Origin: an uncultured Chloroflexota bacterium
GTDB taxonomy: Bacteria; Chloroflexota; UBA11872
Direction: 5' to 3'
DNA: 64,000 bases
NCBI GenBank assembly: GCA_958296175.1
Contig: OY282448.1
Coordinates: forward strand, 2,230,127 to 2,294,126
Shown here: positions 8,050-35,297 of the stretch, in pieces
Layout: each line of letters opens with the position of its first letter
Numbering within the stretch: the stretch's first letter is position 1
Translations under genes and position numbers: made by a program
The notes under the pieces: generated by a model
Database searches by the model: none
What the model saw: only the letters and a program-made list of their open reading frames with translations
What the model was told of the DNA's origin: nothing

Positions 8050-10451
8050 CTACGCCGCCGCCCTCGCGCTCGGCGCCTCGCCATAAACCTGATACGACAC
8101 CGCGCCGCTCTCGGACACCCTGAAATTCAGCGCCGGCACGAACGCAACGTCCCGCCAGGAGCCGGCCCGCCATTCATGCCGCAGCCGCATCCCCAGCACC
8201 CACACGCCCGGTCCCTGCATACCGCCGGACGAAGCCGCCGTAACGAACGCGCCGTGTCCATCCCGGAACCGCAGCCGCGGCGCACGCGCATCGAATTCGT
8301 ACGTGTTGGTCACCGTCCCTTCGCCCGCCGAGATCTGGCTGTCATACCAGTGAGAGCCCCGGAAGTAGTCGGCGCCGTCCACTTCGTCCGGCATACCCCA
8401 GGGCAAGCCGTCGTGCACGGCAATTGCCAACCAATCCTGACTCGTCCACCGCTCGGGGTCCTGGTCGTCCAAGGTTGCCGTGAACGAGACACGCCCATCG
8501 GCAACGCGCACGTCGGTGAGTCGGAGGCTGACAGCCAACGCCGTATCCGTTGGCGGGGGCATGATCGGGTCCACTCCGCCGCGCGGAGCGTAGACGTAGG
8601 CCTCGTCGTTCCACCAGATCGGCCGGCGGCCGTCCGGCGGAAACATCCACGGCAAGAACCACGGCGGGGCCAGCACGAGATCTGGAACATGCGAGCCGAG
8701 CGGCTCGACCTGAAACGGTGGCCGCGTGTGCAACAGCGCCAGGTCGTTGGCGCCAAGCAGCCGAGCGTGGGACACCGCCGCCGCCGCGCGCAAGAAGCCG
8801 ACAGACGTCTGCGCCGGGTGCTGCGGATCGATGAAATCTGCGTACACGTAGACCGAGGCCGAGGCGGGCACGGCCTGCCGGAGCGCCTCGAACGCCGCCG
8901 GCGTCGGCGCCGCGTCCAGCTCCAGAAACTCCGGGCGCACGCGATAGAGCGCCTCGCCGCCGTCGTGGACGAGCAGATCGAACAACCCTGGATCGGCCAG
9001 CCAGCGCGCGGCCCGGTCGGGCAGTTCGGTCACCCAGGCCTCCGTCGCATGCACGTAGGCAATGCCGAGCCGCCGCACGGCCGCGGGTTCGAGATAGTGG
9101 AGAGCGTCGCGGTGTGCCGGTCCTTCGTTTTGCTCCTGGTGAAGTCGTCCGACGAACCCACGCGCGTTGGCGCGTCCCGTCGCAATGGACATCGCGTTCG
9201 GGCTGGGCGAAAGAACGCGCGCGTCGACTGGTGTGCGGTCGCGGATGAACGCGGCGACAGCCGCCGACGTAAACGGCGGGAGCGCATAGCGGTCCATGGG
9301 GCCGACGCCGAACTCGAGCTGCCCCGGCCGAGCGTTGGCAAGCTGCGTCCCGTGCCCAACGGCCAGCCCGAGATTGCGGACCGGCGCTGCCGCGGTTGGC
9401 CAGATGACGAGGGCGGCCACGAGCGCGCCGGCCGCATAGCGCCAGCGCGGCCGCAGGTCGTGCAGCCGAGCGCCGAGCGCAACCATCAGCGCCAGCAATG
9501 CGAAGGTGCGCGCGTGCCCGTCGAACCTGACCACATCGTACGGCGCCGAGCCGTAGCGGACCGTGAGGACGGCCAGCAGGAACAGCGCGCTGCATGCTGC
9601 CAGCGCCAGCGCCAGCGCCAGGCGGTCGCGCCGGGCCAGCAGCGCTGCTGCGGCGGCCGCGGCGACGGGGCCCAGACCCAGCACGCCCAGGCCGCCCGGC
9701 TGCGGGTCGAACGTTCCAAGCAGGCGGCGGCTGCCGGCCTCGTCGGCCCAGCCCAGCGACAGGCCGGACCCGGTTGCGTTGGTCAGGGCGCCGGTGAGCA
9801 CGCCTCCGCCCGCGGCGAGCAACACGAGCGCGAGCGCCGGCCCCGCGGCGGCATGCACCGCCGCAGCGCCGTCGCCACCGCCAGGGCGAAGCTCATCCAG
9901 ATATAGGCGCCCAGCAGCTCCAGGGTGAAGGCCATGTCGGGCCCGACCGGCGGCGCCAGCGCCCCGACCAGCAGGTCGACACCGTGGTGATAGTACGCGG
10001 GTATTCCCGGGTTCCAGGATATTTCTGGAGGGAACACGCCCGCCCGAATCGCGGCGGCCAGCCCAACGTGGAGTTCATGGTCGGGCGTGAACAGCAGTTG
10101 CCGCGCCGCAAGCGCGATCCAAAACAGCAGGACGGCCGCGCCGGCGAACCCGACCGCGACGCGCACGCGCGGCCAGATCGGCCGAGGCGCGCGCCAGGCC
10201 AGCGCGGCGGCCAGCGCCACCGTGACGGCCCACCCCACGGCCGCGCCCGCCAGCCCGGGAACCGCGAACATGACGACGTTGACCAGCAGCCCCCACAGCG
10301 CTGGCCCGACCACCAGCCCCTGCGCCAGCGCCATGGCGTCGTCGTCCTGACGCAAGGCCGTGCGCACGATGACGAACCCGACCGCCGCCAACGCGCAAAG
10401 CTCTGCCGCCAGGATCAGGAGGCCCGGAACGACCGTTGGATCGACACGCAT
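8050..10451 (-). pseudogene. Tandem paralogue (copy A) of a large polytopic membrane protein; it carries an internal deletion of about 170 aa and a frameshift relative to copy B
   Basis: ORFs 9783..10451 (N-terminal part, 222 aa) and 8050..9858 (C-terminal part, 602 aa) sit in different frames and overlap by 76 bp. Both parts align at about 85-90% identity to the single 974-aa ORF of copy B. The first and last 130 bp are nearly identical at the DNA level. Confidence 0.5.
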
Positions 10452-10605: not shown

Positions 10606-13509
10606 CTACGGGAGGCGCCTGACCGCACGCGGATCTTCGTAAGGAGCATACGCCGCCTCGCCGTCTGCGGAGACCTCGATGCGCAGCACCGGGAGGTAGG
10701 CCGTGTCGCTCCGGGCCTCGGCGCTCGGCTCGCGCCGCAGACGCATTGCCAGCACCCAGACGCCCGGCCCGGGGATCTGGCCGGACGATGCCGCGTCGAC
10801 GAACGTCCCCTGGTCATCGCGCGCGGCAAGCCGGGACGTGCGCGCGTCGAAGTCAAACGTCTGGGGTGCTGGCGCCTCGTCGGGCGGAAAATGACCGGCG
10901 AACCACACCACGTAAATCGGCGTGCGATTGTGCGGGGGGACGGTCCGTGGAAGCGCCCGCGGCGAATCGTCCACGGCCACGACCAGCCAATCCTGTCCAT
11001 CCCAGTGCGTGGCCGTGTCCAGCAGCGTGGCCGTAAACACGGCGCGCCCATCCAGGGTGTGCGCGTCGGACACCCGCACGCTGGCGGCGATGGGCGGCGC
11101 GTCAGGCGGCATGATTGGCGCCACGGCGCCGCGCGGCGCGATGACGGCAAGCTCGTCGTTCCACCAGACTGGCTGGCGGCTGTCCGGCGGAAACATCCAG
11201 GGCAGCAACGGCAGCGGCGCCGCGACGAGGTCGGGCTCGACGCCGCCCAGCGGTTCGATCTGGAAGGGCCGCCGCAGATGCGCCACGCTCGAATCGAGCT
11301 GGCCGACCAGGCGCGCGTGGTCCAGCGACGCGGCGATGCGCACCATGGCCTTCGACTCGAACGGCGCAGGCAGCCAGACGACGGCGGACGCCGGCACGGA
11401 CTGCCGCAGCGCCTCGTACGAGGCGGGCGCTGGCGGCGCATCGATCTGCAGGAACGCCGGGCGCACGCGGTAGAGCGCGTCGGCGCCGTCGCGAACCAGA
11501 AGGTCGAAGTAGCGCGGATTCTCCAGCCGCCGCCGTGCCTGAGCCGGAAGCTCGGCCGCCCAGACGTCCGTGGCATGCACGTAGTCGACCTCCAGCCGGC
11601 GGACGGCGGTCGGATCGAGGAAGCCCGCGGCATCTCGATACGCGGCGCCAGTCATTCTGCCCAGGTGAAATCGTCCGGCAAGCCCAGACACGTTCGGTCG
11701 CCCCGTGGCAAACGTCATCCGATGGGGACTCGGTGAGAGGACTCTCGCGTCGACGGCCGTGCGGTCGCGGATGAATGCGGCGACGTCCGAGCGCGCCAGA
11801 GATCCGACCTGCTGCCGACTGATTGCGTGGATCCTGATCCCCGGCTGCTCCGCTGACGCATTGGAAACCTGCACGCCGTGCCCGACGGACAGCCCGAGAT
11901 TGCGAACCGGCGCCGCCGCGGTTGGCCAGATGACGAGGGCAACCACCACCGCGCCGGCCGCGTAGCGCCAGCGCGGCCGCAGGTCGTGCAGCCGGGCGCT
12001 GAGTGCAACCATCAACGCCAGCACCGCGAAGGTGCGTGCGTGCCCGTCGAATCTGACCAAATCGTGCGACGCCGAGCCGTAGCGGACCGTGAGGACGGCC
12101 AGCAGGAACAGCGCGCTGCCGGCCGCCAGCGCCAGCGCCAGGCGGTCGCGCCGGGCCAGCAGCGCCGCGGCGGCGGCCACGACGACGGGGCCCAGACCCA
12201 GCACGCCCACGCCGCCCGGCTGCGGGTCGAACGTTCCGACCAGCCGCCGATTGCCGGGATCCGCAGGCGCGCCCACGGACAAGCCCGACGCGGCCCCCTC
12301 GGTGAGCATGCCGGTGAGCGTGGAGGTGAAGACGCCCCCGCCCGCGGCAAGCAGGAGGACGGCAAGCGCCGGCCCGGCGGCGGCATGCGCCGCCGGGCGC
12401 AGGCGCCGCGGCATCGCCGCTCGGGTCGACCAAAGCGCCGCGGCCTCGAGCGCCGCCCATAGCGCCAGCACGATAGGCGCAACGGTTTCGTCGGCGAGCC
12501 CCAGGAACCCGACCAGCGCCGCCAACGTCACGGCGGCCGGCCAGCCCCCAGGCCGATTCGCTGCGGCAACGCCGCCGCCGACCACCCGCGCACCGCGCCT
12601 GGTCCCCGGTAGGCCGGCCGCCGCCCGCTCCAACACCACGAGCGCCAGCGCATAGGCCAGCACGAAGAACGGTTTGAACAGATTGGGCGGCGACGGGCCG
12701 TAGCCGTTCATCCCGCGAAATTCCCAGCTCCACGGCGGTTCGGTGGGCCAGTAGATGTCGAGCAGCGACGCGCGCAGGCCGGCGGACGGCACGCCGGCCG
12801 GGACGGGAACGTCCACCACGTGCGCTGGCGTGTAGACCACCAGCGTCCAGGCGCCCGCCGACAGCAGCAGCGGCACGGTGACCAGCACGGCGCCCCAGAA
12901 CGCGCGCGTCCACAGCGCCGTTGCCACGGTCAGCGCCAGGCTCACCCAGATATAGGCGCTCAGCAGCTCCATGGCGAACGCCAGGTCGGGGCCGACCGGC
13001 GGCGCCAACGCGCCCAGCAGCAGATCGGTGCCGTAGTGGTAATTGGCCGGCGCGCCAGGGCTGTAGGGCAGCTCCGGCGGGAACCCGCCCTCGCGAATCG
13101 CAGCGGCCAGCCCCAGGTGGAGGTGCGCGTCCGGCGTGTGCAACTGCTGCCGGGCCGCCAGGGCGACCCAGAAAAGCGCCAGGGCGGCGACGAAGAACCC
13201 GGCCGCAACGCGCGGCTGTGGCAGGAGGCGCGTGCGGCTGCGCCGCGCGCGCCAGGCAAGCGCGGCGGCAAGCGCCAGCATGACGACCCACCCCACGGCG
13301 GCGCCGGCGCGGCCGGGAACTGCGTACATGACGAAGTTGACCAGCAGCCCCCACAGCGCCGGCCCCACCACCAACCCCTGCGCCAGCGCCATGGCGTCGT
13401 CGTCCTGACGCAGGGCCGTGCGCACGATGACGAACCCGACCGCCGCCAGCGCGCAAAGCTCCGCCGCCAGCAGCAGCAGGCCGGGAAGGACGGTTGGGTC
13501 GACGGTCAT
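10606..13509 (-). CDS. Large polytopic membrane protein with an extracytoplasmic C-terminal domain (possible GT-C-type glycosyltransferase; function unknown), copy B
   Basis: Intact 967-aa ORF. Start chosen at MTVDPTVLPGLL by homology to the copy A start MRVDPTVVPGLL. The N-terminal half has 10 or more hydrophobic segments; the C-terminal half is soluble. The alternative 835-aa ORF 11102..13609 is rejected. Confidence 0.4.
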   Translation of the reverse strand: MTVDPTVLPGLLLLAAELCALAAVGFVIVRTALRQDDDAMALAQGLVVGPALWGLLVNFVMYAVPGRAGAAVGWVVMLALAAALAWRARRSRTRLLPQPRVAAGFFVAALALFWVALAARQQLHTPDAHLHLGLAAAIREGGFPPELPYSPGAPANYHYGTDLLLGALAPPVGPDLAFAMELLSAYIWVSLALTVATALWTRAFWGAVLVTVPLLLSAGAWTLVVYTPAHVVDVPVPAGVPSAGLRASLLDIYWPTEPPWSWEFRGMNGYGPSPPNLFKPFFVLAYALALVVLERAAAGLPGTRRGARVVGGGVAAANRPGGWPAAVTLAALVGFLGLADETVAPIVLALWAALEAAALWSTRAAMPRRLRPAAHAAAGPALAVLLLAAGGGVFTSTLTGMLTEGAASGLSVGAPADPGNRRLVGTFDPQPGGVGVLGLGPVVVAAAAALLARRDRLALALAAGSALFLLAVLTVRYGSASHDLVRFDGHARTFAVLALMVALSARLHDLRPRWRYAAGAVVVALVIWPTAAAPVRNLGLSVGHGVQVSNASAEQPGIRIHAISRQQVGSLARSDVAAFIRDRTAVDARVLSPSPHRMTFATGRPNVSGLAGRFHLGRMTGAAYRDAAGFLDPTAVRRLEVDYVHATDVWAAELPAQARRRLENPRYFDLLVRDGADALYRVRPAFLQIDAPPAPASYEALRQSVPASAVVWLPAPFESKAMVRIAASLDHARLVGQLDSSVAHLRRPFQIEPLGGVEPDLVAAPLPLLPWMFPPDSRQPVWWNDELAVIAPRGAVAPIMPPDAPPIAASVRVSDAHTLDGRAVFTATLLDTATHWDGQDWLVVAVDDSPRALPRTVPPHNRTPIYVVWFAGHFPPDEAPAPQTFDFDARTSRLAARDDQGTFVDAASSGQIPGPGVWVLAMRLRREPSAEARSDTAYLPVLRIEVSADGEAAYAPYEDPRAVRRLP

Positions 13510-13701
13510 TGGCGCGCCTGCGGCGGACACTCACACGATGCTGTCGAGCGGGCGCCGCCCGTCGGCAGGTCGATTGGGTCGGGCGCTCGCCGTCGACCAG
13601 AGCCTGCAACGACGGTCAGACGTCCGTGAAACCGACAATCGTGCGTCCTGCCGTTCCGCGCGCCGAGGCGTCGGCGACTGGTAAGAGCTTTCCACGACGG
13701 C

Positions 13702-14157
13702 CTACCGCCGTTGGGCCAAGCGCTCGGTGTCCGCCTGGCGCAGCGGGCGGTGGGCGTCCAGTGTCACGGTGTCGCTGTGGTCGGGCGGGTAAGGCGGGCT
13801 GGTGATGAAGAGCGCGCGGGCCGGAGCGCCGCCGGCGGCTGTCAGTTGCAGCGTGTGTCCCGGCGGGGTGACCACGGATTCACCCGCGGCCGCCGTGCAT
13901 GCGCGCACCGCGCCCAGGTCGGCGTCATAGGTTGCGGCGCGGATGCGGCCGGCCAGCACGTAGGTCACCTGCTCCAGCGTCAGGTGCGCGTGCACGCCGT
14001 AGATGCGCCCGGGTTCGAGGCTGCCCTCGGCCAGCGCCAGATGCGCGCAGGGGCTGACGTCGATCGGACGCACCACAATCCCATCCTGCGCCGTCACGGG
14101 CGGCCCCGGCGTTCGCGTCCCAACGTGCGCACCGACGGCATCCGTGGTTTCGGTCAA
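13702..14157 (-). CDS. Cupin domain protein
   Basis: 151 aa with a cupin two-His motif (GVHAH...). Overlaps the upstream gene by 4 bp. Confidence 0.55.
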   Translation of the reverse strand: MTETTDAVGAHVGTRTPGPPVTAQDGIVVRPIDVSPCAHLALAEGSLEPGRIYGVHAHLTLEQVTYVLAGRIRAATYDADLGAVRACTAAAGESVVTPPGHTLQLTAAGGAPARALFITSPPYPPDHSDTVTLDAHRPLRQADTERLAQRR

Positions 14158-16013
14158 GGCGTCGGGTCGACTGGCCGCGGGCGGTGGAGGTCCGCTGGGG
14201 TTCCGGTCGATAACGGTCCCCCGAACGCGTCGATGACTTCGTCCGAGTCACGGCCTGGGATTGGTTTTCCCATGGCGTCCTCTATGGCGTCCAGCAGCTT
14301 GACCGCGCGGTCGCGGATGAAGCCGCCAAAGTCGTTGCGGCGCAGCAGCTCGGGTTCGATCCAGTGTGTTGCGAGCACCTCGTCCAGGCGATCTCTGCTG
14401 ATGTTCCCGGTGTTCACCAGCCTGTCGAGATATTGACTCGGAGCGCTGCCGCCGAGCATTCGATTGGTCTCGCTGGTGAGCGGCGCTTTGTTCACCACGC
14501 TATTGGAGGTCGAATAATCCACGCCATTATTCGAACACCAAGCCCGCGGGAAAATGTGATGGATGTCGACAGGCAATGAGAACCCCATGGTGTGCGCAAT
14601 CGGATTCGCATTCTTGAAGTCGTGGCTCCCCTGCTTTACCATGAGGGAAAAGAGGCCCTTGTATGCGGCGCTGTTTCGAGTACTGAGGCCAAGCAGCCGC
14701 GTAGGAGCAAAATTCGCGTCGCGAATAGTACGCGGCTCTTCGTTGCCCTCGGTCCACCCAACGACATCCTGGATGTCCATCGTGTAACGAGTTTCGTTGG
14801 CGCCGCCGTACATCTCGCCCAGTACGCCGCACCAGTACCAGCGGGCGAGCTTCGCGAGGACGTCGTGTGCGTCGAGCTGCTTGTCGAGATAGGCGCAAAT
14901 CGCCGCCAAGGGCACGAGCTGAGTTCCGTACGGCAGGTTTCGCCGGTCGAAGACCCTCTCACGGGTCAGCAACTGCGCGGCGCGTTGAAAACCGTGCTCG
15001 ACGGACGAGGCGTTGTCCTTATACTCATCGAGCGTCAGCCGCAGCACGTCGCGGCGCCGGACGCTGACCGCGCTCGTACTTCCCGGCGCGCGGCTGCGCT
15101 TGTAGCTGGCAAGCAGCGTAACCGCCTGCAAGAAGTCGGTGCTGCTCACTCCGCGCAGCACGTTCTGCTCTGCAATCCGCTCACGCCGTTCTGCCCAGTC
15201 GTCCCGCAGGCGGAAGTTGTCAGCGGCGAAGCTGGCCGTCACGAGCTCGAAGACCGACAAGGTGACGCCGCCCGTGTTCACCTTTTCGAATACCTGGCAG
15301 ACGGCCTCTTTGGGAGTTTCCCTCTTTAACTCAATGACTGGAACTTTGTATTTATTAATCGGAAGCCAGATTTTCGCAAGAAACTGGTCGATGAACTCGA
15401 CTTTTCCAGGATTGAACTTGAAGTACTCTTTGTATCCAGAGTTCCATTGAAAAGCCTCGACAGCGTTGAAGATCATCTCCAGCGGGTACAGTCCACGCTC
15501 ATACTCACGCTCGCGCGTTGTTACGTCGAGTACCACCGTGCGCCCAAAATCGGCCGTGCGCACCTTCGATTCAGGAAGCGAGAGAACCGCTTCTTCCCGG
15601 TCCAGGTCGGGGTCGAGGCATTTGGCCATGTCCAGATAATAATACAGTTTGGTTTCCTGGCCTCGCGTCGTTCGCGTGGGGACAGGGCGGCCGCTCATGA
15701 GCGCGAGAAAAAGCGAGGTCAGCCGCTGTTGGCCGTCGAGAACCAGGCCGTTGGGCGAAGTGAGAGAGTCGAGGTGGACGCCTGCGAACGGCCGCGGCAA
15801 GAAACTGCCGCTCTCCCCGCCAGTTTCCAGCACCATCACGGCGCCGATCGGGTAGGAGAGCGTGACACTGGCGATCAGCGAACGAATGTGCGCATCGTCC
15901 CAGATCCAACTGCGCTGAAAATCGGGCAGCTGGATGGCGCCTTTGCCGATGTCACTCAGGAGTTCCGAGAGCAGCGGCTCGTTTGTCTGGAACGTTCCCG
16001 AGGAGAATGCCAT
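14154..16013 (-). CDS. GmrSD-family type IV (modification-dependent) restriction endonuclease; DUF262 (ParB-like NTPase) + DUF1524 (HNH-like)
   Basis: N-terminal DUF262 hallmark LDGQQRLTSL. C-terminal DUF1524 motif DIHHIFPRAWC followed by N..V. 619 aa. The gene lies in a roughly 58% GC stretch against a roughly 70% background. Confidence 0.8.
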   Translation of the reverse strand: MAFSSGTFQTNEPLLSELLSDIGKGAIQLPDFQRSWIWDDAHIRSLIASVTLSYPIGAVMVLETGGESGSFLPRPFAGVHLDSLTSPNGLVLDGQQRLTSLFLALMSGRPVPTRTTRGQETKLYYYLDMAKCLDPDLDREEAVLSLPESKVRTADFGRTVVLDVTTREREYERGLYPLEMIFNAVEAFQWNSGYKEYFKFNPGKVEFIDQFLAKIWLPINKYKVPVIELKRETPKEAVCQVFEKVNTGGVTLSVFELVTASFAADNFRLRDDWAERRERIAEQNVLRGVSSTDFLQAVTLLASYKRSRAPGSTSAVSVRRRDVLRLTLDEYKDNASSVEHGFQRAAQLLTRERVFDRRNLPYGTQLVPLAAICAYLDKQLDAHDVLAKLARWYWCGVLGEMYGGANETRYTMDIQDVVGWTEGNEEPRTIRDANFAPTRLLGLSTRNSAAYKGLFSLMVKQGSHDFKNANPIAHTMGFSLPVDIHHIFPRAWCSNNGVDYSTSNSVVNKAPLTSETNRMLGGSAPSQYLDRLVNTGNISRDRLDEVLATHWIEPELLRRNDFGGFIRDRAVKLLDAIEDAMGKPIPGRDSDEVIDAFGGPLSTGTPADLHRPRPVDPTP

Positions 16014-18275: not shown

Positions 18276-19400
18276 CTACTCGATGAAGGTTCGCCAGGCG
18301 TAGGCTGGCTCCGGCCCGCCCGGCTCGTCCTCCAGCGCGCTGAGGTTCAGGTCGCCGAACCCCAGGCCGGGTTCGTCGCTGAGATACATGTAGCCGTCCT
18401 GCACCTCCAGCGCCTCGCCTGCCACCTGGCAGCGCAGGTCGGCTTCCGGGAAGGCGGTTTCCAGCACCCAGAAGTTGGGCGCAACCGCCGCCGCCTGCAG
18501 GGCCATCGCCGCCGACACCGGGCCGCCGGAATTGTGCGGCGCCAGCTGGACGGCATACGTCTCGGCGGCGGCCGCAATCTTGCGCACCTCCGTGATGCCG
18601 CCCGCGTGGGTCAGGTCCGGCTGAACGAACGCCGCCCCCTGCCCCTCCAGCAGCTCGCGGAAGTCCTGGCGGCTGAACAGCTTCTCGCCGCAGGCAATCG
18701 GCACGGCCATGCGCGGCGCAAGCGCACACGTGGCCTTCACGTTCTCGGCTGGAATCGGTTCCTCCATCCAAACCGGGTCGAACGGCGCCAGCGCCTGCGC
18801 GGCCTGGATCGCGTGCCGCGGAGTCAGCCGCTCGGCGCACTCGACATAAATCTCGAAGTCAGGCCCGGCCGCGTCCCGAATGCCCTGCAGCATCTCGGCG
18901 GCGAAACGGATGGCCTGCGTCTCGGTGCGGCGGCCGGGCGCGCCAAACGGCGTGACCTTCACGCCGCGGTAGCCCTGCGCCTGCGCGCGCAGCGCGCCGT
19001 CCACGTGGTCGGCCGTCGAGTCCATCCAGCGCGACACCCCGCCCGCGTACACCCGCGCCCGCCGGCGCAGCGGGCCGCCCAGCAGCCGCCAGACGGGAAC
19101 CCCGTGTCGCTTGCCGTGCAGGTCCCACAGCGCGCCGTCGATGGCCGAAATGGCGCTGCTGACGATCGGGCCGCCGCGCCAGCCCGTGCAGAGGTCGCGC
19201 CAGATCAGCTCGATTGCCGACGAGTCGCGCCCCAGCAGCCGCGGCGTGAAGTGCTGAATCGCCCCGGCCACCGCCCGCCCCCGGTCGGAGGTGGACCCCT
19301 CGCCCCAGCCGTGCAGCCCTTCGTCCGTCGACACGCGCACGAACAGCCACTCGCGCCAGCGCACGTACTTCGAAAAAACTTCGATGCCCGTAATCGTCAT
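18276..19400 (-). CDS. Enolase-superfamily enzyme (mandelate racemase / muconate lactonising enzyme family; D-galactonate-dehydratase-like)
   Basis: 374 aa. Motifs include KVTPFG, the metal ligand context D..E..D, and a GxKLxxxGG-like region (ACGEKLFS). Confidence 0.75.
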   Translation of the reverse strand: MTITGIEVFSKYVRWREWLFVRVSTDEGLHGWGEGSTSDRGRAVAGAIQHFTPRLLGRDSSAIELIWRDLCTGWRGGPIVSSAISAIDGALWDLHGKRHGVPVWRLLGGPLRRRARVYAGGVSRWMDSTADHVDGALRAQAQGYRGVKVTPFGAPGRRTETQAIRFAAEMLQGIRDAAGPDFEIYVECAERLTPRHAIQAAQALAPFDPVWMEEPIPAENVKATCALAPRMAVPIACGEKLFSRQDFRELLEGQGAAFVQPDLTHAGGITEVRKIAAAAETYAVQLAPHNSGGPVSAAMALQAAAVAPNFWVLETAFPEADLRCQVAGEALEVQDGYMYLSDEPGLGFGDLNLSALEDEPGGPEPAYAWRTFIE

Positions 19401-19470
19401 GCAGCCCTTCCGTCGTTCCGCGCGGCGCGCGCCGCCGGTGCCGTGCGGACCGCGGCGCCGCCGACCGCCG

Positions 19471-20229
19471 TCACGCCGCGGCCGTCCGAAACGGCGACAC
19501 CGCCGGACGCGCCGGCGAGGTGGACGACGGGCAAACGTCGTTCAGCGTGCAGCCGTCGCAGTCCGGCCGCCGCGCGTCGCAGACCCGCCGCCCGTGCCAG
19601 ATGACGGCCGTGCCGGCAAAAATCCAGGCGCCGCGGTCCAGGGTGTCCATCAGGTCGCGTTCGATCGTGACCGGGTCCGCCGCGCGCGTCAGCCCCAGCC
19701 GCTGCGAGAGCCGCTTGACGTGCGTATCCACCACCACGCCGCTGGCCACGCCAAAGGCTTCGCCCAGCACCACGTTGGCGCTCTTGCGCGCCACGCCGCG
19801 CAGGCGCAGCAAGTCCTCCATGCGGCGCGGCACCTCGCCGTCGAACTCGTGCACCAGCTGCGCCGCCGTTTCTCGAATGGCGCGCGCCTTGCTGCGGAAG
19901 AAGCCCGTCGGGTGGATCAGCGCTTCCACTTCCAGCTGCGAGGCCGCCGCCAGCGCCTGCGGCGTGGGAAAGCGCCCGAACAAGGCCGGCGTCACCCGGT
20001 TCACCGTCACGTCGGTGGTCTGCGCCGACAAGATCACCGCAATCAGGAACTGAAACGGCGAGCGGTAGTCGAGTTCCGCCGCCGCGTCCGGATACAGCGC
20101 GCGCAGCCGCCGCACGATCTCCGCCGCCCGCGCGCGCCGCGCCGCTTTCGACTCCCGCCAGCGCCGAACCACCAACGCCGGCCGCCCCGCGCGCCCCCGA
20201 GTCCTCCTCCCAGCCATACCCAGCAGCAT
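19471..20229 (-). CDS. nth: Endonuclease III (DNA glycosylase/AP lyase)
   Basis: HhH-GPD motifs: FQFLIAVILSAQTTD, LRLRGVARKSANVVLGEAFG (catalytic Lys), VDTHV. Fe-S cluster C-x6-C-x2-C-x5-C at the C-terminus. The exact start is uncertain. Confidence 0.85.
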   Translation of the reverse strand: MLLGMAGRRTRGRAGRPALVVRRWRESKAARRARAAEIVRRLRALYPDAAAELDYRSPFQFLIAVILSAQTTDVTVNRVTPALFGRFPTPQALAAASQLEVEALIHPTGFFRSKARAIRETAAQLVHEFDGEVPRRMEDLLRLRGVARKSANVVLGEAFGVASGVVVDTHVKRLSQRLGLTRAADPVTIERDLMDTLDRGAWIFAGTAVIWHGRRVCDARRPDCDGCTLNDVCPSSTSPARPAVSPFRTAAA

Positions 20230-20454
20230 ATCCACCCCACCGCGCCGGCGGCCACAAGGCCGAAAGACCGGCATAAGCAGTCAGCGGCCAGGGGCCGAGG
20301 GCGCGGGACGTGCGGCAAGCGCCGCGCTTGCCGCTCCCCCGGCCAAGGACGCCGCCGCGGCCGCAGCGCAGGCGGCCCACGGCCAGCCCACGGCCGGCCC
20401 ACGGGCGGCCCCTGCGCCTATAATCCCAGCGGCCGCCGCGCCCGGACGCCCTCC

Positions 20455-23400
20455 GTGCCCATCGCCAACCTCGACGACGCCTACGAGCTCGACCAAGCCG
20501 TCGGGCGCATCCTGCGCGCGCCCGACCCGCGCCAGCGTGCGGAAGCCGTCCGGCGGCTGTTCGTCGAGGTGCTGGACTTCCATTCGCAGTCCGGCCAGGT
20601 TTCGTTGCGGCCGCCGCCCGCCGGTGCGCAGCTTCCCGCCGCTGCCGAGCGCGTCGCGGTGTTGGACGGCGTGCACGTCTGTTACGTCGCGCTCCAGGCG
20701 CCGGAAAACGACCGCGTGCGCACGGCCGAAGCGTCCGCCGCGGCGCGGCGGCTGGCCGACCAGCTGGGCGACGACCTGCTGCTGGCCGTCTCCAACGCCT
20801 CCGGCCGCCAGCTGCACCTCATCCATCCGCGCGTACAGGGTGCGCGGCCCACGCTGCGCCGTCTGGTGTTCGAACAAGGCCTGCCGCGCCGCACCGCCGT
20901 CCAGCAGGCCGCCAACATCTACGCCGAATACCGCGCGTCCCGCAGCATCCGCGCCGCCCTGGACGCCGCCTTCGACGTCGAGCCGGTCACGCGGCGCTTC
21001 TTCAGCGACTACAAGAAAGTGTTCACCCAGGCCGAACGACTGGTCACCGGCTTCGGCCCCGACCAGGCCGACGACAAGCGCCTGTTCGTGCAGACGCTCT
21101 TCAACCGGCTCATGTTCGTGCACTTCCTCTCGCGCAAAGGCTGGCTGACCTTCCAGGGCAAGAACGAATACGTGCAAGCGCTTTGGGACAGCTACCAGTC
21201 CCGCCGCCCCAGCGAAACCAACTTCTACCGCGACCGTCTGCACCCCCTGTTCTTCTGCGGCCTCAACAACCCGTCGGGCACGGACGTGAACGGTCGCTAC
21301 ATGCGGAAGGTCTACGGCGACGCGCCGTTCCTGAACGGCGGCCTGTTCGAGCAAAGCGCACTGGACCGGCGGCCAGGCGTGCAGGTGCCCGACGAAGCCA
21401 TCGCACCCGTCGTGCAAGCGCGCAGCGGCTTGTTCCAGCGCTTCAACTTCACCGTCATGGAATCCACGCCCTACGACGTGGAAGTGGCCGTGGACCCGGA
21501 AATGCTGGGCAAAGTGTTCGAGGAACTGGTCAACGAACGCCACGCCAGCGGCGCCTACTACACGCCGCGCCCCGTGGTGGCCTTCATGTGCCGCGAGGCG
21601 CTGAAAGGCTTTCTGGAACACCGCGTGGACGAGTTGGACGCTCAGACTGTGGAAGACTTCGTGGACCGGCGCGACCCCTCCCGCGCCACGCTGGCGCAGG
21701 CGATCCAGCTGAGCAGCGCGCTGGACGACGTCACCGTCATCGACCCTGCCTGCGGTTCCGGCGCCTACCTGCTGGGCATGCTGCAGGAACTGCTGGAGCT
21801 GCAAACCACGCTCTACAGCCAGAAGCTGCGCCGCGACGCGCGCACCTTCTACCAGCTGAAACTGCACGTCATCCAGCGCAACCTCTACGGCGTCGACGTC
21901 GACCCGTTCGCCGTCAACATCGCCAAGCTGCGCCTCTGGCTCTCCCTGGCCATCGACTACGACGGCGACAAACCCGAGCCGCTGCCCAACCTGGACTTCA
22001 AGATCGTCTGCGGCGACAGCCTGCTCGGGCCGGAGCCGGTGCTGCACCTCTCGGCAAAGAAGTCGGAACTCGGCGAGTTGAAGGGCAAGTTCATGCTCGC
22101 CACGGCGCAAAAGGAAAAAGACGAGCTGCGCGGGGGCATCGCGGCTGAGCGCGCTCGGGTCGAGCAGGTGCTGGCGGGCGCATCCGCACCCGAAGGCGCG
22201 GTGAACTGGCGCCTGGACTTTGCCGAAGTGTTCGAGAAGCCCGGCAGCTTCGACATCGCCATTGCAAACCCGCCCTACGTGCGGCAGGAAAAGATCGGTC
22301 CCAGCAAAGCAAGGCTCGTTCGGCAATACGCCGGAGCCGTGAACGCCCGCTCGGACCTGTATTGCTATTTCTACGCGCGTGCGCTGCAACTGCTGCGGCG
22401 CGGCGGCCAACACGTCTTTATCTGCTCCAATAGCTGGCTGGACGTTGGATACGGCGCGCGGCTCCAGGATTTCCTGCTCTACAACGCGCACGTTCGCGCC
22501 ATCTACGAAAGCGCGGTGGAACGGCAATTTTCGACCGCCCAAATCAACACCGTCATCAGCGTCATCGAAAAGAACGGTGTCTGCGACGAGAGTCCGACGC
22601 GGTTCGTGTCGCTGCGGGGCGAGTTCGAGCAGGCGATGGCCGACCCGACGCTTCGCCGCCAGATTACCAAGACCCGCCGGGAACTGCTGGACGCCGCAAC
22701 GAGCGGCGTCGACAGCCGAGGACACGCCAAATTCGTGGGCGACAAGTGGGGCGGCAAGTATCTGCGCGCCCCGGACATCTATCACCACATCCTGACAACG
22801 TATAGCGACAAGTTCGTGCGGCTGGGCGATATCGCGACAGTGAGATTTGGTATAAAGACCGGCGCCAATGCGTTTTTCTTTCTCGACGAGGCGCGCATCC
22901 AGCAGTGGAACATCGAAGAAGAGTACCTTGCTCCCGTAATGACCAGCCCCCAAGAGTCCCGCAGCATCCTCGTCGACCCCGACACGCTTCCGAAGAAGCT
23001 CTTTGTGTGCCACAAGGAGAAAGACGAGCTTAGACACACGGGAGCGCTGGCGTACATTCAATGGGGTGAGACGAATGAGTACCACAAGCGGCGCAGCATG
23101 GTTTCGCGAAAGAGATGGTACGATCTGGGAATACGAGACGGGGTATATCTGGCAATGAATTTGTTAGTGCATGCGAACGCAAGAACGTATCTTTATAAAG
23201 AAGCGGTGTTTTGCAGCAACAACTTTCATGTATTTGCTTCAAAGCATAAGAATGCTAGTGTGTGCACATCACTTAATTCCACGCTTTCTCAGCTTAGCAT
23301 CAACGTGGAGTCACGATCCAATTTTGGCGAAGGTGTTCTGGAGATACAAACATATGAAACCGCTAATTTGCGGATTGTAAAGCCTGAACATATTACGACC

Positions 23401-23628
23401 ATAGATGAGTGTCTGTTCACTTCATCGGACCTTGACATTGTAAGCCGAGAGAATGGCGATCCAGCTTGGCAAGTTGACGATGTATCTGCGAATCGTCGCG
23501 CTATAGACGATGTAGTGTTTGACGTGCTTGGCCTGACCCAAGACGAACGTGACGCAGTGTACGAAAGCGTTATCGAACTAATCAGCAACCGCCTCAGCCG
23601 CGCAAGCAGCGTGCATACCACGAGGTGA
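20455..23628 (+). CDS. MmeI/Eco57I-family (COG1002) N6-adenine DNA methyltransferase, about 1057 aa. The N-terminal PD-(D/E)xK catalytic residues appear lost, so it is probably methyltransferase-only, as in DrmMI or PglX. The C-terminal target-recognition part is sharply low in GC.
   Basis: Motifs: helical-domain PFLNGGLFEQ, GAYYTPRPVV, motif I VIDPACGSGAYLLG, motif IV NPPY (IAIANPPYVRQE). GTG start at 20455. The upstream part of ORF 19291..23628 is antisense to nth and the enolase gene and is rejected. GC falls from about 68% to about 40% after roughly 23050. Confidence 0.85.
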   Translation: MPIANLDDAYELDQAVGRILRAPDPRQRAEAVRRLFVEVLDFHSQSGQVSLRPPPAGAQLPAAAERVAVLDGVHVCYVALQAPENDRVRTAEASAAARRLADQLGDDLLLAVSNASGRQLHLIHPRVQGARPTLRRLVFEQGLPRRTAVQQAANIYAEYRASRSIRAALDAAFDVEPVTRRFFSDYKKVFTQAERLVTGFGPDQADDKRLFVQTLFNRLMFVHFLSRKGWLTFQGKNEYVQALWDSYQSRRPSETNFYRDRLHPLFFCGLNNPSGTDVNGRYMRKVYGDAPFLNGGLFEQSALDRRPGVQVPDEAIAPVVQARSGLFQRFNFTVMESTPYDVEVAVDPEMLGKVFEELVNERHASGAYYTPRPVVAFMCREALKGFLEHRVDELDAQTVEDFVDRRDPSRATLAQAIQLSSALDDVTVIDPACGSGAYLLGMLQELLELQTTLYSQKLRRDARTFYQLKLHVIQRNLYGVDVDPFAVNIAKLRLWLSLAIDYDGDKPEPLPNLDFKIVCGDSLLGPEPVLHLSAKKSELGELKGKFMLATAQKEKDELRGGIAAERARVEQVLAGASAPEGAVNWRLDFAEVFEKPGSFDIAIANPPYVRQEKIGPSKARLVRQYAGAVNARSDLYCYFYARALQLLRRGGQHVFICSNSWLDVGYGARLQDFLLYNAHVRAIYESAVERQFSTAQINTVISVIEKNGVCDESPTRFVSLRGEFEQAMADPTLRRQITKTRRELLDAATSGVDSRGHAKFVGDKWGGKYLRAPDIYHHILTTYSDKFVRLGDIATVRFGIKTGANAFFFLDEARIQQWNIEEEYLAPVMTSPQESRSILVDPDTLPKKLFVCHKEKDELRHTGALAYIQWGETNEYHKRRSMVSRKRWYDLGIRDGVYLAMNLLVHANARTYLYKEAVFCSNNFHVFASKHKNASVCTSLNSTLSQLSINVESRSNFGEGVLEIQTYETANLRIVKPEHITTIDECLFTSSDLDIVSRENGDPAWQVDDVSANRRAIDDVVFDVLGLTQDERDAVYESVIELISNRLSRASSVHTTR

Positions 23629-23766
23629 TATATTCCTGGGAGCGTCGAAAAATACAAAGGACTATATGAATCATATCTATGATTTCACGAAGGATCACCC
23701 AACAAAAGCTAGTCCATATATTTTCAGTTTGCCCGGCAGTCGATGAGTGATTTGACTGGCCGAAAT

Positions 23767-24750
23767 TCACATGAGCATTGACATGTTTAGACCTTGCATG
23801 TCTTCCTTGACGGGGACTTCGAGTTTTGTGACAAAGTACCGTGGCGCACTCAATTTTACGCGTTGAATGCGTACGCTGATGCGCACTCGCTGCTTCAACA
23901 GCGCGTTTATCGGCTTTTCCTCGGCAACGGTGCGCTCGACTTTGGCCTGAATCACTTCCCCCTTACCGCCGTCTGGTGATTGGCCCGCTGGCTCGTCAAC
24001 GACAAATTCCGCTAACTGCCGCTTTGGTAAGTAGCCTTGAAAGTATCCGACCAGTGTGATGTGTTCCTCAGGGATTGGTTTCTGACTCAAACGCTTCACG
24101 CTGGCCTGAACTTGGCTCACGTCACGAAATGCAAACACGCCGCCCTTGAATCTCAGGCGGCATGTGGCCTCTTTGGAATGCAGCACGTCAACGAATTTTC
24201 GTATGGCGTTTACCGCGCGTTCGTCGGTTTCATCCCAAATATGAGCCATTGCATCGTCGCTCTCGACCGATGCCTTCAGGATGTCCTGCGTCCGCGCAAT
24301 CGCCGCCTCGACGTGACTCAGCATCGACTCGAACGCCGTCTGTGAGGACGCGCCCTCGAGTTGGAACCCAAATGACCCCCGCACGACGTCCGTAATCATG
24401 AGCCGGTAGTCTTCTCGATTCGGGATGCGGTCGAGTGCGCCCAAATCGGCTGCCGAATGCTGGCTTGCCCCGACGGCGGCGACGGCGTTTTCAAACGTCC
24501 GGACGGCGTCCCCGCCAAATCCAGCGTCGATGCCTTGTCGGCCCGCGACGGGTTTCCCCTCGAAGCTAAGAAGCGCTTCTGTGGGTTGGGCGGGAAGTAC
24601 CGCAGGGTAGTCGAGGAGTTCCGCCTCGACCTCGGCAAGCCGCTGTGTCAGCGTGTGTTGCCGGATCGCACTTTCCGGTGCCGTGCGGTCGAGCATGTCT
24701 TTCAGCGCGGCTTGTTCGGAAAGCAGAAAACTATGTTCGCGCCTGCTCAT
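23767..24750 (-). CDS. Hypothetical protein (327 aa), second gene of a two-gene operon inside the defence locus
   Basis: No motif recognised. Its start ATG overlaps the upstream stop (TAATG), and a strong RBS AGGAGGACAGTA lies in the upstream gene's 3' end. Moderately reduced GC. Confidence 0.5.
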   Translation of the reverse strand: MSRREHSFLLSEQAALKDMLDRTAPESAIRQHTLTQRLAEVEAELLDYPAVLPAQPTEALLSFEGKPVAGRQGIDAGFGGDAVRTFENAVAAVGASQHSAADLGALDRIPNREDYRLMITDVVRGSFGFQLEGASSQTAFESMLSHVEAAIARTQDILKASVESDDAMAHIWDETDERAVNAIRKFVDVLHSKEATCRLRFKGGVFAFRDVSQVQASVKRLSQKPIPEEHITLVGYFQGYLPKRQLAEFVVDEPAGQSPDGGKGEVIQAKVERTVAEEKPINALLKQRVRISVRIQRVKLSAPRYFVTKLEVPVKEDMQGLNMSMLM

Positions 24751-25367
24751 TACTGTCCTCCTTCACGGTCGAGTTTGTCGAGTTCGGACCTGGCTGCGTG
24801 ATCTTCACCCTCAGCCAGATCGATTCGCACGTAGCCTTTCCACACGCCGTCGCGCGTGTGCGACCACAGGCTATACCAATACGTCAGATCATCCACTAAC
24901 TCATCGATCTTTGCCGGATTCATAACGACGTGGTACGCGTGTAAGCCGTGGATCTTACGAATGGTGTTTGGCTCGAATAAATCTGGATATTGTTCGAGCA
25001 CATCCATTTCCTGTTGATCGTCTGTCACGTGGATGAATGTAATCACGTCAATGTCCCCAGGTGGCCGGCCTTCCGTCTGCTCGACGTCTTCGACGAAGCT
25101 TCCGTCGACCCACTGAAAGCCCCGGGTCAGGCCGGCCGCGTGCAGCCTTTCTCGGTATTCCAGTAGTCCCTGCAGCAGCTTCCGTCTGTTGGGCGTGCGT
25201 CCGAATTTTGCAACCGTGTCGAGAAGGGACGCGCGGTACGGAGATCGACGCCGAGCTGTGGGATTCTTCGGGTCGACGGCGGGAAGCAACCCCGTAAGGC
25301 GCCACGCGGGAATCTGGCTGACGATGATTTCGCTTCTGAACCGATGGCGGCGCACGCCTGTGTGCAT
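24750..25367 (-). CDS. Hypothetical protein (205 aa) with a possible minimal nucleotidyltransferase motif (GS-x16-DIDV)
   Basis: Motif WVDGSFVEDVEQTEGRPPGDIDVITF resembles a pol-beta-type NTase hG[GS]...DxD. First gene of the two-gene operon, divergent from the PLD-SNF2 gene. Confidence 0.45.
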   Translation of the reverse strand: MHTGVRRHRFRSEIIVSQIPAWRLTGLLPAVDPKNPTARRRSPYRASLLDTVAKFGRTPNRRKLLQGLLEYRERLHAAGLTRGFQWVDGSFVEDVEQTEGRPPGDIDVITFIHVTDDQQEMDVLEQYPDLFEPNTIRKIHGLHAYHVVMNPAKIDELVDDLTYWYSLWSHTRDGVWKGYVRIDLAEGEDHAARSELDKLDREGGQ

Positions 25368-25414
25368 TTCGAGTCTAGCATCGCGTCCGCTTCAGACTGC
25401 TCGACCACGACCGA

Positions 25415-25526
25415 TTGTTTGACCGTTGTTTGATTGGACAGGCCAAAAACTCCCGAAAACGGTACTGGTCGATGGTCGGTGAACCTGTTAGGCGGTTCTG
25501 CGGTTGTTTGACCGTTGTTTGATTGG
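25415..25526. promoter_or_regulatory. Divergent promoter region with two perfect 23-bp direct repeats TTGTTTGACCGTTGTTTGATTGG (25415-25437 and 25504-25526). Each repeat contains a tandem TTGTTTGA, giving four sites in all; a putative operator array.
   Basis: Exact repeats read directly in the 302-bp intergenic region between the divergently transcribed hypothetical operon and the PLD-SNF2 gene. Confidence 0.4.
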
Positions 25527-25668
25527 CGGGCGGGTTCGCTGCTCGTGAACGCGTGCTACGCTCGCGTTACAGTATTGACTTGGCGCGGCGCTCGATGAAT
25601 ATGCACGGGTTCGGGTCTACGCCAACGCGCGCGCGCGTGCGGGGCGCGGCGTTCGCCAGGTCGGCGTC

Positions 25669-34352: not shown

Positions 34353-35297
34353 TCAGACGGGTTCCGACGCGACTTTCTGGGCGATGACCCCGTACCAGAG
34401 CCGCGGCACCACGTCGAACCGAATCCGATCCACCGCGGCGCAGAGCGCGTCGCTCAGTTCGGCCATGCTGAAGTCGTTGGCGAACGTCAGGTCCCTGGCC
34501 ATGCCGCGCACGAACTCGGGGTAGCGCGATATCGCCTTGAGCGCGGCTTTGGTCAGCTGCACTTCGCTGTCTTCTTCGTGCACGACCTGGAATCCGGCGT
34601 CGGCGATCATCTGCTTGTAGTCCGCGGGCGTGCGGTAGGCCAGCGTCTCGATATGGCGGTTGCGCTTGGCGCCGGTCAGGCGCACGAAGTGCAGCTTCCA
34701 CTCGCCGTGCCCGCGCATCGAATTGCCCACGGCCATCGAGGTGGAGGTGAAGGAGCTGTTGATGGACAGGAACGCGCCGCTGCGCGCCACGTCGGCCAGC
34801 GCGGCGAACACACGGCGCTGGCCTTCTTCGCCTTCGATTTCGTGAATGGCGTCGTGGATACTCACGGAGTCCACGCCCTCCGGCGGCAGGTATTCCTGCA
34901 CCGCCGCCCGCACGTCGCGCGCGTCGCCCTGCACGAAGGTCACGCTGACGTCCTCCGTCGACGGCGTGGCCTTCCGCGCCAGTTCCAGCGCCTGTTCGTC
35001 GTAGTCGAGCGCGATGACGCGGCCGCGGTAGCCGCGCGCCTTGGCTTCTTCGATGATGAGCTGCGGAACTAGACCGGCGCCGGTTGCCACGTCCAGGTGC
35101 ACGAACGGGTTCGGGATGCGTTCCAGCAGCCGCGCCACCAGGTCACGGTTGACCGCGCGGTATTCCGGGATGGCGGAAAAATGGCCGAAGTTCAGATTGA
35201 TCACGAGCGCGGCGTCAGCATGGTCGCGGGCATTGAATGGCACGTCCCTCCATCGAGCGCGGCGAACGGCGTTGGCGTCAGGCCGCGGCGCGCTCAC
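34353..35297 (-). CDS. Class I SAM-dependent methyltransferase
   Basis: SAM-binding motif I LDVATGAGLV. 314 aa. Confidence 0.65.
   Translation of the reverse strand: MSAPRPDANAVRRARWRDVPFNARDHADAALVINLNFGHFSAIPEYRAVNRDLVARLLERIPNPFVHLDVATGAGLVPQLIIEEAKARGYRGRVIALDYDEQALELARKATPSTEDVSVTFVQGDARDVRAAVQEYLPPEGVDSVSIHDAIHEIEGEEGQRRVFAALADVARSGAFLSINSSFTSTSMAVGNSMRGHGEWKLHFVRLTGAKRNRHIETLAYRTPADYKQMIADAGFQVVHEEDSEVQLTKAALKAISRYPEFVRGMARDLTFANDFSMAELSDALCAAVDRIRFDVVPRLWYGVIAQKVASEPV

Follow-up and report, generated by a model that had tools for sequence, protein, structure and literature searches.

We analysed a 64,000-nt stretch of forward-strand DNA (the window) from an uncultured Chloroflexota bacterium (GenBank assembly GCA_958296175.1, contig OY282448.1, positions 2,230,127 to 2,294,126). 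Our subject is a gene for a DNA methylase of 1057 amino acids (aa), which is followed 2 kb downstream, on the same strand, by a gene for a phospholipase D (PLD)-type nuclease with an HKD motif fused to an SNF2 helicase (HKD-SNF2; Table 1). The two genes probably belong to one restriction-modification-like system, and the 3' end of the methylase gene and the spacer that follows it differ in base composition from their surroundings. Our analysis follows up a preliminary description of the methylase gene that was made from the sequence alone.

Table 1. Features of the methylase/HKD-SNF2 locus (window coordinates)
Feature	Coordinates	Strand	Basis
Methylase gene (proposed modification/specificity subunit)	20455..23628	+	Pfam, PADLOC, homologues, AlphaFold2 model, Foldseek
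N-terminal alpha/beta domain, aa 1-172	20455..20970	+	AlphaFold2, pLDDT 93.9
YVALQ (aa 77-81), end of predicted strand 3, A79-L80-Q81	20683..20697	+	AlphaFold2 model, family columns
Helical spacer region (aa 172 to ~429)	20968..21741	+	Full-length model secondary structure; PADLOC Type IIG alignment from aa 165
Methyltransferase motif I, DPACGSGAYLLG, S-adenosylmethionine (AdoMet) binding, aa 430-441	21742..21777	+	Invariant in family
Methyltransferase motif IV, NPPY, catalytic, aa 605-608	22267..22278	+	Invariant in family
C-terminal target-recognition domain, M.Eco57I / TaqI-C type, ~aa 740-1057	22672..23625	+	Pfam M_Eco57I_C
Low-GC tail of methylase gene, aa 882-1057	23098..23628	+	GC 0.461, GC3 0.46
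2-kb spacer, GC 0.40-0.60, with inserted two-gene cassette	23629..25668	.	Composition, relatives
Cassette gene 1, 327-aa protein, no family	23767..24750	-	Pfam ARPP-2 E=0.003, below cutoff
Cassette gene 2, 205-aa DUF6932 protein	24750..25367	-	Pfam DUF6932 4e-29; PADLOC candidate PDC-M63A 3e-11
HKD (PLD-type) nuclease-SNF2 helicase fusion, 1198 aa	25669..29265	+	Pfam, PADLOC, motifs

The methylase and its downstream partner

The maximal open reading frame (ORF) in the methylase frame extends from 19291 to 23628, and its stretch 5' of the GTG codon at 20455 overlaps a minus-strand HhH-GPD (nth-like) gene (19471-20274). We take this GTG as the real start because 116 of 120 homologues start with Met at that column, beginning M-P-I (P-I-x-N after Met). 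These 120 sequences are the top full-length matches, at 50-60% identity, from more than 7000 homologues. Searches of Pfam with the methylase returned Eco57I (E = 2e-33, aa 476-686; 116 bits, cut-off 25.3), M_Eco57I_C (4.5e-7, aa 789-980; 30 bits, cut-off 27), N6_Mtase (3e-11) and a partial match to MmeI_Mtase (9e-12, aa 417-497; profile positions 12-85 of 259); MmeI_N, MmeI_hel, MmeI_TRD and MmeI_C were not matched. The best PADLOC models were REase_MTase_IIG (2e-79 and 3e-71), with alignments that begin only at aa 165; the DrmMI (1e-31) and PglX models of PADLOC scored much lower, and the NCBIfam models of the PglX, MADS and DrmMI types gave scores far under their cut-offs. Motif I precedes motif IV, which is the gamma-class order, and on its motifs the protein is a predicted gamma-class N6-adenine methyltransferase with the AdoMet-binding and catalytic motifs intact and a recognition domain fused to it. 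The helical spacer region between the N-terminal domain and motif I opens with an AFDVExVTxxFF block that is invariant in the family.

The preliminary description had placed this gene in the MmeI family, an assignment that proves too specific. Only a piece of MmeI_Mtase of about 80 residues was found alongside Eco57I and M_Eco57I_C, and a phmmer search of the PDB aligned the methylase to MmeI (5HR4) with E = 1e-4 over 78 residues (aa 420-497). In Foldseek searches with the full-length AlphaFold2 model (pLDDT 85.6, a predicted local distance difference test score), the fold was nearer to CamA (2e-20), BpuSI (2e-17) and BrxX/PglX (~1e-15), all of which rank above MmeI (1e-14; TMq 0.44), with DrdV at 9e-11. 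By family profile and fold, then, the methylase is best described as Eco57I/Type IIG-like and not as a strict member of the MmeI family. Its Eco57I and M_Eco57I_C matches, both above the gathering score, place it in the Eco57I-type / Type IIG-like superfamily; the active endonuclease domain that Type IIG enzymes have in the same chain was not found, with no E-x-K and with PADLOC alignments that start at aa 165. Of the hallmarks of MmeI (Type IIL), it has the gamma-class N6-adenine methyltransferase motifs and lacks the N-terminal PD-ExK (equivalents of D70, E80 and K82) and full-length similarity; nor is it a stand-alone gene without a consistent partner.

The partner protein has Pfam matches to PLDc_2 and RE_NgoFVII in its N-terminal part and to SNF2-rel_dom and Helicase_C, and the PADLOC model "HKD+Snf2" (C3a139) covers aa 15-898 (9e-50); the DrmD (1.5e-37), HmaA, BrxH and DpdE models match the helicase part only. 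Both parts keep their signatures intact, the PLD domain with LHAKAY and GSSNFT and the helicase with GLGKT, DEAH, SATP and QRFGRVDRIG. We searched 80 related genomic loci for the partner by tBLASTn and found an HKD-SNF2 homologue in 61 of them, always on the same strand as the methylase. The 19 loci without it are mostly truncated contigs, with 8 that have about 9 kb or more of flanking sequence on both sides and still lack it; counting only loci with flanks of that size, the partner is present in about 61 of 69. In close relatives the partner lies downstream (53-70% identity), and in most loci with other N-terminal domain types it lies upstream (24-30% identity), so the two genes have been co-inherited across N-domain types. 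The two closest protein homologues that could be placed on contigs have the same arrangement as the window, and the pairing spans Chloroflexota, cyanobacteria, Planctomycetota and Poribacteria. The preliminary description had foreseen that a methylase without nuclease residues would need a separate nuclease, and the HKD-SNF2 gene next door, present beside the methylase family in most related loci, answers to that expectation; judged by its domains and its conservation, HKD-SNF2 is the probable restriction subunit.

Nothing else among the neighbouring ORFs scanned looked like a further component. The flanking ORFs that we scanned encode metabolic or housekeeping proteins (nth-like, enolase-family, VanW, cupin and transaldolase), a 974-aa protein without a match and a GmrSD protein; DrmA, DrmB, DrmC, PglZ, BrxC and DUF499 were absent among these ORFs, in a scan that was not exhaustive. 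No further DNA methyltransferase was found among them, the sole methyltransferase-fold match being a small generic one (34353-35297) 11 kb away. Since no further system genes were seen among the scanned ORFs, and with only the methylase and HKD-SNF2 genes conserved across the related loci, we regard the pair as a two-gene module.

Two copies of GTTGTTTGACCGTTGTTTGAT lie upstream of the HKD-SNF2 gene, at a 26-nt direct repeat (25412-25437 and 25501-25526, plus strand). Among the 80 related loci the repeat pair was found in one, L005 (14661-14679 and 14751-14769), where the HKD-SNF2 protein is only 70% identical and where both 21-mers, their 89-90 nt spacing and the intervening TGAACCTGTTAG are kept exactly. 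The pair is a candidate operator controlling the nuclease gene.

The N-terminal domain

In MmeI, the nuclease residue D70 marks where strand 2 starts, and E80 and K82 mark where strand 3 ends (PMC2731913). The corresponding site had been expected near LDGVHVCYVALQAPEND, found at aa 70-86 of the methylase, with the E and K of the E-x-K motif replaced by A and Q. To place these residues we modelled aa 1-172 with AlphaFold2, using 26 family sequences. The model has helices at residues 6-21, 25-39, 90-104 and 146-162 and strands at 48-50, 63-70, 73-79, 108-113, 119-126 and 133-140. The helix-strand-strand-strand-helix-strand order is that of the PD-(D/E)xK nuclease core, and strand 3 ends at residue 79, so in the model A79 and Q81 would occupy the places expected for E and K; the predicted replacement is thus backed by the modelled A79-L80-Q81 at the end of that strand. 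The idea that this particular gene had lost its nuclease residues does not hold. Across the 120 homologues, column 79 is A in 52, D in 27, P in 24 and E in 2, column 81 is D in 45, P in 17, S in 13 and K in about 1, and 108 of the 120 have no K or R anywhere in columns 77-85. As far as these alignments go, the absence of E-x-K is shared by the subfamily as a whole and is not a recent loss.

Searches with the N-terminal domain did not connect it to any known nuclease. No Pfam family, MmeI_N included, matched any of the 26 family N-domains at E values up to 10, and neither profile and sequence searches of the PDB nor a Foldseek search of the PDB (nothing at E <= 0.001) gave a match; the top Foldseek hits, diaminopimelate dehydrogenases, had TM scores of 0.15-0.27 and were discarded as meaningless. 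The MmeI structure 5HR4 models residues 156-906 only, with no electron density for the nuclease domain (PMC4833311), and the Foldseek target length for MmeI, about 750, agrees with this. A profile search of 1.84 billion cluster representatives found 258 sequences, with matches that start at residue 1 in nearly all of the 150 listed, in proteins of about 1000 aa or fragments; all were from the same subfamily, and there was no bridge to an active nuclease family. By these searches the domain is a subfamily-specific module without a nuclease motif. It is nonetheless conserved: D41, L60, P61, A68, N114, H121, R136, R146 and T147 are near-invariant (for the acidic and polar positions, E38 is kept in 100 of the 120 homologues, D41 in 117, D/E71 in 109, N114 in 113 and H121 in 118), and the domain is therefore under selection for some function. 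From the model, we take it for a probable dead nuclease domain that now serves for docking.

There are four main N-domain types among the 80 related loci, and four other N-domain types gave no useful Pfam match at E <= 10 either. One type, from Poribacteria and Caldilineaceae, has AVELK, AIKLK or AVALR. Another, from Planctomycetota and others (L021, L035, L061, L063, L065, L068, L069, L074, L079 and L080), keeps D...WGIFLLEFK, with the E mostly conserved and the K position variable (K, E, R, N or A); in sequence this looks like a nuclease motif in course of decay. In most loci of this second type HKD-SNF2 lies directly upstream, and it was not found in L021, L061 and L068, two of which have almost no upstream sequence. 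When the window's N-domain was aligned to these two types with hhalign, A79 fell opposite E and Q81 opposite K, with weak P values (0.016 and 0.11).

Composition of the 3' end and the spacer

The window has a GC content of 69.5%. The preliminary description gave a fall from about 68% to about 40% GC over the last 600 bp or so of the methylase gene, which is close to what we measured: GC falls from 0.651 over 20455-23100 to 0.461 over 23098-23628, the last 600 bp having 0.475 and the lowest 300-nt value being 0.413. Indeed, the lowest-GC 531-nt stretch of the whole window begins at 23201, about 5 standard deviations under the mean. The change is carried by synonymous positions, measured as GC content at third codon positions (GC3), which falls from 0.90 (aa 1-548) through 0.78 (aa 549-881) to 0.46 (aa 882-1057) (ranges 0.83-0.97 over aa 1-570, 0.72-0.85 over aa 570-870 and 0.37-0.52 over aa 870-1057). 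The main change-point lies at codon 882 (nt ~23,101), where GC3 falls from 0.85 to 0.46 with a log-likelihood ratio (LLR) of 57.2, the maximum of 300 permutations being 7.8; there is a weaker second step at codon 549. The HKD-SNF2 gene has host-like GC3 throughout (0.77-0.95) and no change-point (LLR 2.6).

The break coincides with an SRKRWYDLG block (aa 884-892; 23104-23130), in which W888 is invariant in the family, and homologous recombination could plausibly have crossed over there. The recognition domain is about 320 aa long; the tail makes up its distal 175 aa and takes in its least conserved stretch (aa 901-1000). The tail is 34-57% identical to the same region of family members, and is therefore a replaced allele and not an unrelated domain. 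Downstream, the low-GC tract runs past the stop codon, through intergenic DNA (GC 0.399) and two minus-strand genes (0.57-0.58), to about 25,550, where host-like composition returns. On composition, the tail is a probable imported segment. The earlier suggestion of a swapped target-recognition domain thus stands in that the composition step is sharp and synonymous, and needs amending in that the segment covers only the distal 175 aa and is contiguous with the inserted cassette. We rejected a shufflon-type mechanism at this locus, which has no flanking direct repeats, no inverted copies of the recognition domain in the window and no recombinase; a tBLASTn search of the 64-kb window with the recognition domain found only itself.

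Relatives of the methylase vary at the same end of the gene. In many of them the match stops near aa 700 and the C-terminus is another one, and the window's recognition-domain type (aa 761-880) is 55-78% identical in loci where the first 600 aa are 10-45% identical and the N-domain is of another type. We compared GC3 change-points in 63 full-length related methylase genes and 51 partner HKD-SNF2 genes. The LLR exceeded 20 in 12 of the 63 methylases and 40 in 4, and in all 20 with an LLR above 15 the GC3-poorer part was at the 3' end. By contrast, just one of the 51 HKD-SNF2 genes, which served as the control, had an LLR above 20, with a break at 5% of the ORF length that may reflect an over-extended ORF start. 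The positions of the breaks differ (window aa equivalents ~600, 663, 775 and 875): they fall at GFDIxxANPPY in L011, L035 and L065, at CSNSWLDVGYG in L082, and, in L070 and L052, at positions equivalent to aa 775 and 875. The preliminary description would have given up the swap if all orthologues shared the low-GC segment. A mild drop is indeed common, with tail GC3 equal to or lower than that of the head in 60 of the 63 relatives (mean drop 0.12; the window's drop of 0.44 is the largest seen). L082, however, which encodes the closest homologue, has a sharp break of its own (GC3 0.86 to 0.53, LLR 64) and a tail only 40% identical to the window's, and for this reason the 3' pattern is one of recurrent replacement and not a single ancestral low-GC segment. 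We also computed a per-segment identity correlation across 119 homologues, and dropped it as evidence because the identities spanned too narrow a range to tell us anything.

One related locus has a different arrangement at this end. In L037, from a Tepidiformaceae metagenome-assembled genome (12352-15022), the methylase 3' end has nested inverted repeats, of 281 nt (93%) and 178 nt (90%), in common with a minus-strand ORF (13109-13846) that encodes a partial recognition domain. Between the methylase and HKD-SNF2 genes stands a tyrosine-recombinase-like ORF (13990-14946). The arrangement has the look of a switch of recognition specificity by inversion, for which the window has no equivalent.

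The spacer of the window holds a two-gene cassette on the minus strand. The 327-aa product of its first gene matched nothing in PADLOC or NCBIfam; the DUF6932 protein carries a GDIDV motif that suggests a small nucleotidyltransferase-like protein. The same pair occurs in the methylase-helicase spacers of L010 (15459-16930) and L072 (13497-14971), at 42-49% identity (42-43% for the 327-aa protein), next to methylases with different recognition domains; cassette and tail have therefore not been inherited together across the family. A mobile module with a toxin-antitoxin or defence role is one possibility for this cassette. Among relatives, the methylase and helicase genes overlap at one extreme and lie 8.7 kb apart at the other, and the spacers carry PIN/VapC-like and RelE-like toxin-antitoxin pairs, a Uma2-type nuclease, TPR proteins and a Schlafen/AlbA_2 ATPase, as judged from the sequences or, for L082, from its Pfam labels. 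To judge from this cargo, the spacer acts like a hot spot of integration, on which small toxin-antitoxin-like cassettes land. Spacers with cargo were seen in L007, L010-L012, L015, L019, L020, L028, L041, L044, L049, L051, L053, L054, L060, L062 and L082.

A proposed two-gene system and its alternatives

We propose that the methylase gene encodes the modification/specificity subunit of a two-gene, ATP-dependent restriction-modification-like system, and that its 3' end has been replaced; from the sequence evidence we put the probability of this reading at about 0.65. The methylase would read a short asymmetric site and methylate host DNA. On unmethylated foreign DNA it would recruit or license HKD-SNF2, probably via its dead nuclease-like N-domain (aa 1-172), and HKD-SNF2 would then translocate with ATP and cut with its PLD-type site. 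Cutting would need a dimer, because there is one HKD motif per chain. These steps are modelled on how Type I, Type ISP and Type III enzymes behave and on a proposal made in 2009 for MmeI-like proteins. As for the 3' end, homologous recombination at SRKRWYDLG would have brought in another allele for the distal 175 aa, drawn from a pool with a GC content near 45-50%, and this probably changed the recognised sequence.

In Type ISP (LlaGI, LlaBIII), Type I and Type III enzymes, a methylase/recognition module is coupled to an ATP-driven translocase-nuclease, as we propose here. Type ISP enzymes are a single polypeptide with an Mrr-type nuclease, and Type I enzymes combine HsdR (PD-ExK and an SF2 motor) with a separate S subunit, whereas the nuclease here is of the PLD type and the activities would be divided between two proteins. 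There are closer precedents. Some MmeI-like proteins without PD-ExK, such as YeeA of Bacillus subtilis and MslORFHP, showed no endonuclease activity and have a helicase encoded beside them, and their altered N-terminus was proposed to dock a separate helicase and nuclease (Morgan et al., 2009; PMC2731913). Like that group, the locus described here has a large single-chain gamma-class N6-adenine methylase with a fused recognition domain, a different N-terminus without PD-ExK, a conserved flanking helicase and no second methylase among the ORFs scanned. It differs in that the partners in that group are a DEAD helicase and a separate GIY-YIG nuclease, in place of one HKD(PLD)-SNF2 fusion. The high similarity of that group to MmeI outside the N-terminus is also missing here: the sequence relation to MmeI is weak, and the recognition domain is of the Eco57I-C type and not MmeI_TRD/MmeI_C. 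The same two-gene pairing is seen where a Type IIG-like gene adjoins one for "phospholipase D + SNF helicase" (Milman et al., 2023; PMC9881135), namely Cj0031-like or Eco57I-domain genes next to PLD+SNF, and in PADLOC C3a139. Recombination is known to act on Eco57I-domain genes and to alter their recognition domain. The Cj0031-like/PLD+SNF pairs have been described as genomic context only, and our literature searches found no biochemical, phage-defence or other functional test of the methylase/HKD-SNF2 pair. The kind of system that we propose has thus been described in outline since 2009, and the locus itself is an ordinary defence gene pair.

Several observations weigh against parts of this reading, and we set them out here with the alternatives that they bear on. 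The first alternative concerns the tail alone: its low GC might reflect an intrinsic 3' compositional bias or an ancestral state of the family, with no import at all. Besides the general mild decrease at the 3' end, tails are almost never GC3-richer than heads even in low-GC cyanobacterial hosts, and a systematic bias may add to horizontal transfer in making them poorer. Moreover, the low-GC donor lineage that the preliminary description hoped to reach by searching with the C-terminal part alone did not appear: the best protein match to aa 800-1057 was 56-57% identical, and searches of plasmid proteins and DNA, with phage collections outside their scope, returned nothing relevant. The GC3 of the tail (0.46) against that of the cassette genes (0.57-0.77) speaks against a single joint import. 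However, we consider an intrinsic or ancestral origin unlikely, since GC3 drops in a single step at an invariant motif with no gradient, the break positions differ among relatives, the closest homologue has its own break and a dissimilar tail, the adjoining intergenic region and cassette are low in GC too, and the partner gene, under the same host pressures, has no such break.

A second alternative, for which the odds seem poor, is that the methylase is an orphan or regulatory CamA-like adenine methyltransferase, and that HKD-SNF2 is an independent defence protein, Type IV-like or a PLD-helicase acting alone, which only happens to sit in the same defence island. Among the structural matches of the methylase CamA ranks first, 2 kb and two opposite-strand genes separate the methylase gene from HKD-SNF2, a GmrSD Type IV enzyme is encoded nearby (14154-16013), an NCBIfam model for a stand-alone "phospholipase D-like anti-phage protein" partly matches the helicase, and 8 well-flanked related loci have no helicase. 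The co-location of the two genes could thus be defence-island clustering. The conservation speaks the other way: the genes are paired on the same strand in most related loci, across phyla and four N-domain types, they are adjacent or overlapping in L022, L023 and L039, and the cargo of the spacer changes while the two genes that flank it stay.

A third alternative would do without the partner altogether, the methylase being a self-sufficient bifunctional Type IIG/IIL enzyme (similar to MmeI, BpuSI or Eco57I) whose N-domain cuts with non-canonical residues. Type IIG/IIL enzymes (BpuSI 3S1S, MmeI 5HR4, DrdV 7LO5 and Eco57I) share with the methylase the order of N-terminal alpha/beta domain, helical spacer, gamma methyltransferase and recognition domain; its architecture and fold match those of BpuSI, MmeI and DrdV, and its best PADLOC models are of this type. 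The N-domain keeps conserved acidic and polar residues (E38, D41, D/E71, N114 and H121), and the invariant polar D41, N114, H121, R136 and R146, with E38, could in principle form a non-canonical active site, unlikely as this is. Our assignment of the domain to the PD-(D/E)xK fold is consistent but weak, leaning on the order of its elements and on the hhalign alignments; Hjc resolvases appeared in its Foldseek search at a probability of 0.11-0.15 only, which is chance level. In addition, relatives of the Planctomycetota type, which keep E-x-K, also have an HKD-SNF2 neighbour, and so motif loss and partner are not strictly linked. We nonetheless judge a self-sufficient enzyme improbable. Type IIG/IIL enzymes have an active PD-(D/E)xK site and cut alone at a fixed distance, whereas the methylase is paired with a motor-nuclease conserved next door and has, like most of its homologues, no E-x-K or equivalent lysine near strand 3; the PADLOC Type IIG models leave aa 1-165 unaligned, there is no match to MmeI_N, and the MmeI homologues without PD-ExK were inactive as endonucleases (PMC2731913).

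Class 1 DISARM (DrmMI, DrmD and DrmABC) and BREX, through PglX, have a methylase of the same broad clade with separate effectors, and Hma / BREX-related type 2 systems consist of a DUF499 ATPase, a DUF1156-type methylase, an HKD-SNF2 helicase and DUF3780 (PMC12839542). That the locus is a reduced version of one of these is very improbable: partial matches to the DrmMI, PglX, DrmD, HmaA and BrxH models notwithstanding, NCBIfam scores are far below the curated cut-offs (60-75 bits against 400-900 for PglX, for example 75 against 900, and 139 against 610 for DrmD), neither DrmA, DrmB (DUF1998) and DrmC nor PglZ, BrxC and DUF499 were found in the non-exhaustive scan of neighbouring ORFs, only two genes are conserved across relatives, and HKD-SNF2 is the sole component of the DUF499-centred systems that is present, the Hma/BR methylases being of the DUF1156 type with an inserted recognition domain (PMC12839542), unlike this Eco57I-type methylase with its C-terminal one.

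A broader and more doubtful possibility is that the pair represents a widespread, uncharacterised restriction type, split but Type ISP-like, with a PLD nuclease and with a fossil nuclease domain as the coupler. The 3' end of the methylase gene and the spacer would then be a dedicated exchange site for specificity modules (at NPPY, CSNSWLD and WYDLG) and for toxin-antitoxin or defence cargo, both drawn from a shared lower-GC mobile pool. The occurrence of the HKD-SNF2 pairing across Chloroflexota, cyanobacteria, Planctomycetota and Poribacteria makes it a candidate for defining a restriction type. The signature of 3' replacement, seen in about one fifth of the family and not in the partner gene, offers a simple way to map the exchange of specificity modules in single-chain methylases, and the methylase-helicase spacer is of note as a landing site for small cassettes.

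The window has a few further features of interest. The minus-strand GmrSD-type gene (DUF262, Type IV restriction), 4.4 kb upstream of the methylase gene, is a second, separately acquired defence gene, with a GC content of 0.598 as against 0.695 for the window. Farther upstream, separated from the GmrSD gene by a cupin gene, lie three minus-strand ORFs of 974, 602 and 222 aa (10606-13530, 8050-9858 and 9783-10451) that have high, coding-like GC3 and no Pfam match at E <= 0.001; the 974-aa ORF has no match in PADLOC or NCBIfam either. Lastly, there is a third local dip in GC at about 41150-41880, inside a 1062-aa minus-strand ORF (39508-42696), where the 531-nt windows from 41151-41351 fall below 0.55.

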